Shown: positions 6,157-7,813 of the stretch, one piece after another
How the letters are laid out: each line of letters begins with the position of its first letter
Numbering within the stretch: position 1 is the stretch's first letter
Made by a program: the position numbers and the translations under genes
IMG/VR virus record: IMGVR_UViG_2548876938_000006
Source of the DNA: a virus
Taxonomy: Duplodnaviria > Heunggongvirae > Uroviricota > Caudoviricetes
Reading direction: 5' to 3' (one strand)
Length of the DNA: 20,211 nucleotides
The notes under the pieces: model-generated
Told to the model about the DNA's origin: nothing
What the model saw: only the letters and a program-made list of their open reading frames with translations
The model's database searches: none

Positions 6157-6648
6157 TTATTTTAAGCACTGCGTCCTGATGTATTCCTGCAGGTAGTTAA
6201 CCTGCGCGGTTATCTTGTCGATTCCACCTCGGAGACGGTAATAATTGAGTTCAGCATCTGCTGTAAGTCCTGGGCTTTCTCCATCGCCCATGCTGCTGGC
6301 TCCGGTCGTTGACTTTGCACAGGTGGCGGAGACTTGCAGGCGCTTACGCCCAGCAGAAACATCAGCACGGAGACTTTCGATAGTCGCATTAGCATCAGCA
6401 AGCTCCTTTGTGTATCTGGCGTCGAGTTCTGCTACATCACGTTGACGCTTCTGCATGTCAGCGATGATGGATGTGGCTTTGTCGCGCTGGTCTTTGTAGG
6501 CGATGGCGTTATCACGGTAATGATTAACAGCCCATGACAGGCAGAGGATGATGCAAATAACCAGAGCGGAGATAATCGCGGTTATCTGCAGACGGACCCG
6601 ATGGCGTGTTGCCGCCGGGCGAGGGTTTGATTTCCGGTGCCTTACCAC
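6157..6648 (-). CDS. Rz: Spanin inner-membrane subunit Rz; no ATG start, 5' end overlaps the esterase ORF
   Basis: [28 protein letters not shown]... matches remembered lambda Rz. The listed ORF begins at GTG 6648 and overlaps the upstream ORF by about 125 nt. Confidence 0.7.
6210..6401 (-). CDS. Rz1: Spanin outer-membrane lipoprotein Rz1, embedded in Rz in the +1 frame
   Basis: Embedded ORF with lipobox-like LLGVSAC followed by a proline-rich segment ([13 protein letters not shown]). Start Met uncertain (6401, 6395 or 6389). Confidence 0.55.
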
Positions 6649-7813
6649 TGATGAAGGCTGAGGTGCGCCCGGCTGCGTTCAGAATAGCGGTTGCCAGACG
6701 ATCCGGAATAATGCTCCTGCGCGCCCATGAACTGAAATGTGTCGGGCGGTTTGATGATACCTGGTTTCCATTCGTTCTCGATGCCGCACCGTAATATCCT
6801 GATGCCGGAATATCCGGATCTTCTGCCGGCGCGTTAGTGGCGGTATTGACGCCGTTACCATCTGTCATGAAGGGCACAAAATAAACGCCCTCACTCTCCC
6901 TGTTTTTATACCCGCCGTACACGGTGTCGTACTGGGTAGCGTATGTATTTTTCCAGTAATACGTCGTGTCACCACAAACCCACGGCACATCTGCAGCACT
7001 GCCACCATGGCACTGCGCGTTAAACACGGAGAGGTCAGCACGAAACTGTGTCAGCATGGCTGTAAACAGCGCAGGTTGCTGTGCGTGGGTGGCGGCGCTC
7101 ATGTCAAACTCACCCTGCATCCAGCAGACGGCCAGCAGAACGTTTTTGGGATTTTTCTGCAATGCCGCTTTTGTGCGGGAAATCAGATCCTGATATAACG
7201 GCTTGCCCACCCCCCAGCGTGCCGAATCCTGACTGGCCCCCGTGGACTCGCTGAATGTCCCCTCCGCGCCCTGGGTAAATGCCGAACCACCACGACAGCA
7301 TGGTACCAGCAGGATCCCCGCGTTATTCGGGATATACGGGAGCAGTTTTTTGGCAATATGTAAACCCTGACCGACACAGCCGTACTGCCCTTTGCTCAGG
7401 TCAGCCCTCGGATGATTCAGCGTACTCATATCCTGCACATCATGCAGACAGTGGTCAGCCGGAATAATATCGTTATATCTGCAGGCAGCCCCGCCCGGCG
7501 TCACTGTACTGCGGCGCGCCAGCTGTTTAATGCGCGGATCCGGAGCATCGTATGAATCCGGCAGCGGAAGCCCTTCACCGTAAGCCATGGCATTGGACTG
7601 CCCGGCCAGTACGATGACGTAGTACCAATCCGGCTCAGATGAAGGGCCGACCTGTGGCTCTCCTTCAATAGCCACCGCCTGCATCAGTGTGTACGGCGTA
7701 ATGGCAACCGGTCCGCCGTATGGCTGCCAGCCCTCTTTCAGTTTGTGTGTCAGCTTTTCCGCAAGGTCTGACGGCGACGCCGCCCTGACAACATCGTAAT
7801 GTTTAATCGACAT
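6524..7813 (-). CDS. nanS: Prophage NanS-type sialate O-acetylesterase (N-terminal extension plus SGNH domain), C-terminal domain missing
   Basis: [23 protein letters not shown]...PCCRGGSAF...CWMQGEFD...[12 protein letters not shown] matches remembered E. coli YjhS/NanS. GGAG precedes the ATG at 7813. Last ~40 aa are Rz 5' sequence read out of frame. Confidence 0.75.

Follow-up and report, generated by a model that had tools for sequence, protein, structure and literature searches.

An esterase/Rz overlap in a defective lambdoid prophage of Escherichia coli as the very probable scar of a deletion through the lysis genes

How does it come about that in a lambdoid prophage the gene for a NanS-p-type sialate O-acetylesterase runs into the gene for the spanin Rz, with no gene for a holin or an endolysin in between? 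The question is raised by a stretch of Caudoviricetes DNA of 20,211 nucleotides (IMG/VR virus record IMGVR_UViG_2548876938_000006), the whole of which is called here the window. On its minus strand lie an esterase open reading frame (ORF) with an ATG start (6524..7813, 429 residues) and an Rz-family ORF that is called from a GTG (6157..6648, 163 residues), and the two share 125 nucleotides (6524-6648). A preliminary description, made from the letters of the window only, had placed the end of the esterase gene 125 nucleotides inside the Rz frame, which is exact, and had proposed that a deletion removed the holin gene S, the endolysin gene R and the esterase's C-terminal domain. Comparison with intact relatives bears this proposal out. 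Very probably an illegitimate deletion, of which the overlap is the scar, has struck the late region of a lambdoid prophage similar to phage 434, which sits between torT and torS in an attaching and effacing Escherichia coli.

In the native arrangement Q is followed by the genes for a membrane protein, for TciB and for an esterase of 616 residues, then by a 447-nucleotide spacer, and then by the genes for the pinholin S, the signal-anchor-release (SAR) endolysin R and Rz/Rz1. For example, in the prophage of the O84:H7 strain Trh52 the esterase gene (616 residues) and the 447-nucleotide spacer precede the genes for a class II holin of 68 residues, the lysozyme RrrD of 165 residues with an N-terminus of the SAR type, and an Rz of 145 residues. 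The classical viable phage 434 (OL657226.1) likewise has a Q82-like Q, the membrane protein, TciB, a SASA esterase, a class II pinholin, a SAR endolysin, and an i- and an o-spanin. The intact cassette is found at a coverage of at least 80% in 356 of the 5,426 complete E. coli genomes, and the flanks of the window are near-identical to many E. coli prophages. An apparently complete relative with 97% identity is integrated at ybhC in strain EC12 (NZ_CP070229.1 1309857-1335763). It has O, P, the nin genes, Q, the esterase gene, S, R, Rz and terminase, and can serve as a guide when the ancestor of the remnant is to be reconstructed.

The alignment of the window with intact nanS-p/S/R/Rz regions (the preliminary description had recommended that of a Shiga toxin (Stx) phage) defines the deletion and places its junction at 6583/6584. 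By blastn, positions 6031-6584 of the window correspond to positions 6001-6554 of the Trh52 locus (97.8% identity) and positions 6583-9216 to positions 8332-10965 (100% identity). The latter segment is also 100.000% identical to phage 434 over its 2,634 nucleotides (0 mismatches), and the blastn offset is again 1,779 bp, which is the length of DNA absent from the window relative to phage 434 and to the intact prophages of Trh52 and EC12. The missing DNA extends from codon 411 of the esterase gene to nucleotide 10 of Rz. It comprises codons 411-616 of the esterase gene with the stop codon, i.e., the lectin-like C-terminal domain, furthermore the 447-nucleotide spacer with its terminators, the class II pinholin gene and the SAR endolysin gene, and finally, of Rz, the first 10 nucleotides together with its GGGGG ribosome-binding site; a three-way alignment displays the junction and the missing ATGAGCAGGG. 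Apart from this gap the window resembles phage 434 in the order of the genes that lie upstream of the esterase gene, in residues 1-410 of the esterase, which are identical, and in the 5' end of Rz, which is homologous, whereas the distal part of Rz is another allele, nearer to the DLP12/RzpD type and annotated as rzpD-like in other genomes. Since the flanks are 97.8–100% identical to intact relatives on either side of a clean 1,779-bp gap, the arrangement is not a chance pattern. Since the parental sequences have only the two nucleotides TA in common (6583..6584, not assigned to a strand, located by blastn offsets and alignment), the recombination was illegitimate, at the level of microhomology, and not between repeats. 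The deletion is ordinary prophage decay of an already understood kind and not a new system.

The apparent overlap follows from this deletion. The loss of the 3' part of the esterase gene, S, R and the start of Rz has joined a shortened esterase gene to an Rz gene without its 5' end. The esterase frame now reads over the junction into the wrong frame of Rz and ends at 6524 after 19 foreign residues, and the Rz frame, being by chance open upstream as far as GTG 6648, gives the impression of 125 shared nucleotides. True Rz DNA, as delimited by alignment, tblastn, PHROGs and Pfam, is the 5'-truncated i-spanin gene at 6157..6584 (minus strand), and what precedes it at 6585..6648 (minus strand) is a spurious extension made of esterase DNA in another frame, so that the esterase ORF overlaps true Rz DNA by 61 nucleotides only (6524-6584). 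It might be asked whether the overlap is instead native, a compact arrangement in a phage lineage that never had S and R and lyses its host otherwise. Both ORFs are open and overlap cleanly, and overlapping genes are frequent in lysis cassettes, as in the case of Rz/Rz1. However, both flanks match, at the identities just given, phage 434 and intact prophages that do have S and R in between; the esterase is interrupted in the middle of a linker and continued by residues from out-of-frame Rz DNA; Rz lacks exactly its first 10 nucleotides; and of the complete genomes none has the junction as compared with the 356 that have the intact cassette. A native overlap, which the preliminary description had named as a finding that would speak against it, is already refuted by these alignments, and its probability is negligible.

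A second objection is that the junction could be an artefact of assembly or sequencing, namely a collapse between repeated prophage sequences, and that the true genome has S and R. Near-identical lambdoid late regions are indeed abundant in E. coli (median of 3 places per genome) and prone to misassembly, and a 60-mer across the junction finds no full-length match among the 5,426 complete E. coli genomes; among the GTDB species representatives the exact junction pattern gave 0 matches, a result that carries no information. Nevertheless, at least 8 public contigs of differing origin in NCBI, ENA and Logan, each assembled independently, encode the exact 429-residue protein that spans the junction, e.g., on NCBI GCA_000446325.2, ENA ERZ772991, and Logan SRR21142975 and ERR271437. 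In all four of the contig loci retrieved the junction 60-mer is present and the identity to the window is 100%, and the 2 nucleotides of homology at the junction offer no repeat that could have been collapsed. An assembly artefact is very unlikely.

Is the lysis function that was lost at this site provided elsewhere in the element? Between Q and Rz only the genes for the 252-residue membrane protein and the 52-residue TciB/DUF3927 protein, a 62-residue ORF also present in phage 434, and the esterase gene are found. That this interval holds no S-like or R-like ORF, as had been noticed before, is confirmed by ORF contents, Pfam, PHROGs and tblastn. When tblastn was run against the whole window with three queries from an intact relative (holin, endolysin and esterase C-terminus), nothing better than E = 0.35 was obtained: this was the best value for the SAR endolysin, and that for the class II holin was 2.6, neither being a match. 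A PHROGs scan of the unannotated ORFs of the window gave no lysis category beyond the spanins, and no holin is annotated in the genomes that carry DNA near-identical to the window. The closest complete genome, that of Z1323HEC0011 (see below), contains a 219-nucleotide remnant of rrrD that is absent from the window, and in the ~1.8 kb of the element that lie there beyond the window (a hypothetical gene, espJ and IS1, followed by torT) there is no lysis gene. A holin or endolysin located elsewhere in the prophage, which would have argued against the deletion, was thus found neither in the window nor in what remains of the element in Z1323HEC0011. The 52-residue DUF3927 protein and the 252-residue membrane protein were considered as holins, but phage 434 and the intact prophages have both of them beside a true pinholin, and for this reason they were rejected.

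What is left of the spanins? The 163-residue ORF is clearly of the Rz family (Phage_lysis/Rz PF03245, E 2.4e-34; phrog_13, E 2.7e-69, positions 4-154 of 154), and over residues 3-146 of Rz it is 95.8% identical to Rz of an intact prophage by tblastn. As read by eye, the DNA directly after the junction encodes the 20-residue transmembrane segment, and the periplasmic coiled-coil domain that follows is also encoded. Missing are the start codon and the ribosome-binding site of Rz itself, which in this family overlap the 3' end of the endolysin gene. The preliminary description was thus correct in stating that Rz has no ATG, because the deletion removed its first 10 nucleotides and its ribosome-binding site, but the GTG at 6648 from which it let the ORF begin, the only in-frame start codon upstream, is not a real start and owes its place to a frame that is open by chance: it was rejected as the start of Rz since no Shine-Dalgarno sequence lies upstream (CACCTCAGCCTTCATCA-GTG) and the 21 codons before the junction are esterase DNA. 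Because the first in-frame ATG of Rz lies past the membrane anchor, a functional Rz is probably not made and the gene is probably dead. The 163-residue "Rz" is a deletion product that should be annotated as a pseudogene.

The gene for the o-spanin Rz1, embedded in the +1 frame of Rz, is intact (6210..6395, minus strand, 61 residues). Its product matches PF06085 (E 2.4e-20) and phrog_3198 (E 3.2e-28) and has a signal peptide with the lipobox ...LLGVSAC; the start at 6395 is preceded by AAGGAG 7 nucleotides before the ATG, and on one of the other contigs with the junction Rz1 is called as a gene of 61 residues. With a Shine-Dalgarno sequence and an ATG of its own, Rz1 was left untouched by the deletion. 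The lysis cassette was therefore described too generously as reduced to Rz/Rz1: holin and endolysin are absent as stated, but judged from the reading frames Rz is itself a 5'-truncated pseudogene and Rz1 alone among the spanins is intact. Without holin and endolysin the spanins are in any case without a target.

The esterase has been affected in a different manner. Its residues 1-410 are identical to those of the intact protein and of the phage 434 protein, and residues 411-429 are the 19 foreign residues encoded by Rz DNA out of frame. DUF1737 (PF08410) is found at residues 4-49 (E 1.5e-15) and SASA with E 3.8e-13, and PHROGs is concordant, phrog_143 being matched from profile position 1 to 415 of 634. 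Residues 60-379 align with NanS from E. coli (PDB 3PT5, chain residues 17-332 of 337, E 1.3e-122), with GQSN at residues 71-74 and RPTH at residues 356-359, the latter being a described variant of block IV (PMC10462455). The catalytic NanS-like SGNH/SASA domain is thus complete, the N-terminal DUF1737 is also present, and the break lies in a Pro/Gly/Ser-rich linker between domains. Residues 421-613 of the intact protein, which align with NanS-p's C-terminal domain (6YP6), are lost, and tblastn with the esterase C-terminus detected this lectin-like jelly-roll domain (6YP6/DUF6645) nowhere in the window. The supposition that the C-terminal domain was removed while the catalytic SGNH domain was kept has therefore proved right. 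Chromosomal NanS comprises nothing more than this catalytic domain, which the truncated esterase has in full. The 9-O-acetyl esterase activity is for this reason probably retained, provided that the gene is transcribed from the Q-dependent late promoter, although the carbohydrate-binding C-terminal module is missing.

Compared with the NanS-p sialate O-acetylesterases of prophages (933W z1466; phi24B vb_24B_21 = gp84), the window esterase has in common the DUF1737 N-terminus, the NanS-like SGNH/SASA domain with GQSN and RPTH, and the position of its gene downstream of Q and upstream of S. It differs in that 19 unrelated residues stand in place of the lectin-like jelly-roll domain and in that it belongs to a non-Stx remnant which is not inducible to lysis. 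The three-domain architecture of NanS-p has been described and carbohydrate binding has been proposed for the C-terminal domain (PMC10462455, PMC8065619). Prophage nanS paralogs with additional N- and C-terminal domains were catalogued already in 2013 together with "partial" versions that have just one of the two, and in enteropathogenic E. coli (EPEC) such paralogs were linked to prophage remnants (Vimr; PMC3658417). In a 2026 preprint DUF1737 is assigned to capsid decoration in phi24B, a role that is meaningless in a remnant without capsid genes. The locus offers a natural NanS-p with only the catalytic domain, on which the contribution of the lectin-like domain can be tested; the 429-residue esterase, being a deletion product, should be annotated as a truncated gene.

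Was the DNA lost in one step? The nearest complete genome, that of Z1323HEC0011, matches the whole 20.2-kb window at 100.0% identity, with 0 mismatches in 6,584 nucleotides and 2 in 7,818 nucleotides (14.4 kb aligned), but it holds 518 bp more at the deletion site. There, a deletion of its own of 1,261 bp has joined residue 511 of the esterase to the middle of rrrD and has left Rz intact. The junction of Z1323HEC0011 has an imperfect microhomology of 9 nucleotides including CCGGTA and occurs in no other of the complete genomes. A third form of this prophage is found in chicken isolates, where the esterase gene continues at about residue 566 into the tail-tip gene J. Here S, R and Rz are missing, as are the genes for packaging, head and tail as far as J, whereas O, P and the nin genes are kept. 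Both sister alleles agree with the window in integration site, effector cargo and early region (99.2–100% identity), and in all of them the deletion begins towards the 3' end of the esterase gene, so that the catalytic domain is spared. The breakpoints, however, differ: 1,261 bp into rrrD and a far larger loss up to J, as against 1,779 bp to nucleotide 10 of Rz in the window. With three breakpoints in one gene, the sister alleles illustrate on a small scale, and cleanly, how a prophage decays either stepwise or in parallel. The esterase::rrrD fusion occupies positions 7052-8632 of the Z1323HEC0011 locus and the esterase::J fusion positions 10267-11964 of the chicken-isolate locus.

These alleles suggest an alternative to a one-step loss of 1,779 bp, namely that a second, neutral loss of 518 bp took place over an older 1,261-bp esterase::rrrD deletion. 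If 518 bp are taken out of the Z1323HEC0011 locus, the window results, with only the two mismatches mentioned, all other scars are common to both, and the junction of Z1323HEC0011 lies wholly inside the gap of the window. Against this it has to be said that a neutral second deletion falling exactly across the first scar would be a coincidence, that either history requires two events across the two sister lineages, so that parsimony does not choose between them, and that parallel losses could be explained by selection against the holin-endolysin pair in an inducible element unable to make phage. We give the two-step history a chance slightly below even.

Nothing was found that contradicts the deletion itself, and the weak points all lie in what is concluded from it. 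Initiation of Rz at a non-canonical codon is possible, and one public annotation has a 144-residue product starting at 6591 with the codon CTG. The activity of a NanS-p without C-terminal domain is argued only from the NanS homologue that consists of the catalytic domain.

The recurrence of breakpoints in one part of one gene could also be taken to mean that the deletions are an adaptive domestication, in which the lethal genes were purged while the catalytic esterase and the effectors were kept under Q-dependent, SOS-inducible late transcription. Three sister lineages have differing breakpoints (residues 410, 511 and ~566), every one of them in the 3' part of the esterase gene with the catalytic domain spared; no damage is seen in Q, N or the S24-type repressor; and the effector genes follow on the same strand 0.5-4 kb downstream. 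It should be noted, however, that any deletion which removes S but spares the catalytic domain has to end in an interval of ~1.15 kb, of which ~60% is the 3' part of the esterase gene, so that the coincidence of all three lacks significance (about 0.2 by chance), and that effector loci normally have their own regulation. We therefore regard selective purging as unlikely. Its full form is slightly less likely still, namely that the serial deletions have produced a non-lytic, non-replicating module inducible via SOS and Q, with a late transcript from pR' running through the catalytic-only esterase gene and the Rz remnant to nleB2, nleH and cif. If true, the use of sialic acid from mucin and the supply of effectors would be coupled to DNA-damage signals, and the recurrent independent breakpoints beyond the esterase catalytic domain would be a footprint of selection.

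The deletion in the lysis region, for which ordinary decay remains the preferred explanation, is accompanied by at least two others, and the element is defective throughout. Downstream of Rz the native sequence is kept up to the next scar (6033..6156, minus strand, from the alignment with the Trh52 locus). It is followed, ~125 nucleotides from the Rz stop, by an internal fragment of 148 nucleotides of the tail-tip gene J (5885..6032, minus strand), which corresponds to positions 9517-9664 of the chicken-isolate locus within an annotated tail tip pseudogene and which abuts a tail-fibre 3' fragment (up to 5886). The join of the J and tail-fibre fragments is the scar of a deletion that took all packaging, head and tail genes. 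On the other side of Q an ORF of 218 residues (9972..10628, minus strand) is an in-frame O'::'phosphatase fusion, composed of the N-terminus of a lambda-type O and, from a Ser/Thr phosphatase, the C-terminal ~80 residues; Phage_rep_O (PF04492) matches its residues 22-115 only. Other annotations call it "replication protein". At this scar the C-terminus of O, P, ren and the nin genes are gone.

Kept in the element are int/xis, recombination genes, N, the S24-type repressor, cro, cII, Q, the morons close to Q, and a block of effector genes of the type III secretion system: nleB2, a fragment of nleC, nleH, cif and an NleG-like gene. The int gene lies at 19138-20211, and the window ends at the integrase stop, in relatives beside torS, the left end being at torT. 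With replication, virion and lysis genes lost and with an integrase gene and an attachment-site flank present, the element is a defective lambdoid prophage. Having neither holin nor endolysin, it is, as far as can be read from its gene content, probably unable to lyse its host, as the preliminary description had concluded; since replication genes and all virion genes are lost too, this inability is over-determined. Like DLP12 (essD-rrrD-rzpD/rzoD) and the defective effector prophages of EPEC and enterohaemorrhagic E. coli, the element is multiply deleted, but its immunity region, parts of the lysis cassette and a cargo of morons and effectors are kept. DLP12, however, retains holin, endolysin and spanins, whereas here holin and endolysin are missing and only Rz1 is intact. 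That prophages decay while their cargo is retained is well known ("grounded" prophages, reviewed in PMC6379469). The present case is an effector-carrying prophage unable on its own to lyse the host or to make phage, and for this reason the spread of cif, nleH and nleB2 would need a helper prophage or recombination.

The effector genes are all on the minus strand: the NleG-like gene at 582-1193, cif at 2061-2909, nleH at 3133-4023, the nleC fragment at 4332-4622 and nleB2 at 4656-5636. The block (582-5636) has the same orientation as the Q-dependent late transcript, and nleB2 starts only ~0.5 kb downstream of the Rz stop. The scan called no minus-strand terminator between Rz and nleB2; a hairpin near 5775-5800 was seen by eye.

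Upstream of the esterase gene, and also on the minus strand, Q is apparently intact (9352..9975, 207 residues, PF03589, E 6e-58). The first gene downstream of it encodes the 252-residue membrane protein of unknown function (8356..9114, phrog_1521/STM1630 family), and this is followed by the moron for the TciB-like DUF3927 small membrane protein of 52 residues (8112..8270), assigned from Pfam, PHROGs and the comparison with phage 434. Transfer RNA genes, as seen downstream of Q in Stx phages, were not found. In a promoter and terminator scan of the window, 5 promoter-like matches were obtained where 6.3 were expected from shuffles, which is not above expectation, and the sole convincing result was a strong intrinsic terminator (7926..7908, i.e., 7908..7926 on the minus strand) just upstream of the esterase gene, the hairpin GGCTGCGCATTGCGCAGCC followed by T8, with a GC-rich stem of 8 bp. 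This stretch is 100% identical to phage 434, in whose record a terminator upstream of the esterase gene is annotated, and it lies inside the 62-residue ORF (7867-8055, minus strand). In the phage 434 record this ORF is a putative membrane protein gene, and RefSeq has at this place a frameshifted pseudogene on the opposite strand. Finally, downstream of N a protein of 293 residues is encoded on the plus strand (13098-13979). It belongs to phrog_12139, a family of unknown function, and has in its last 20 residues a weak Nun-like match (phrog_5632, E 7e-5), which may hint at a function in transcription termination or exclusion.

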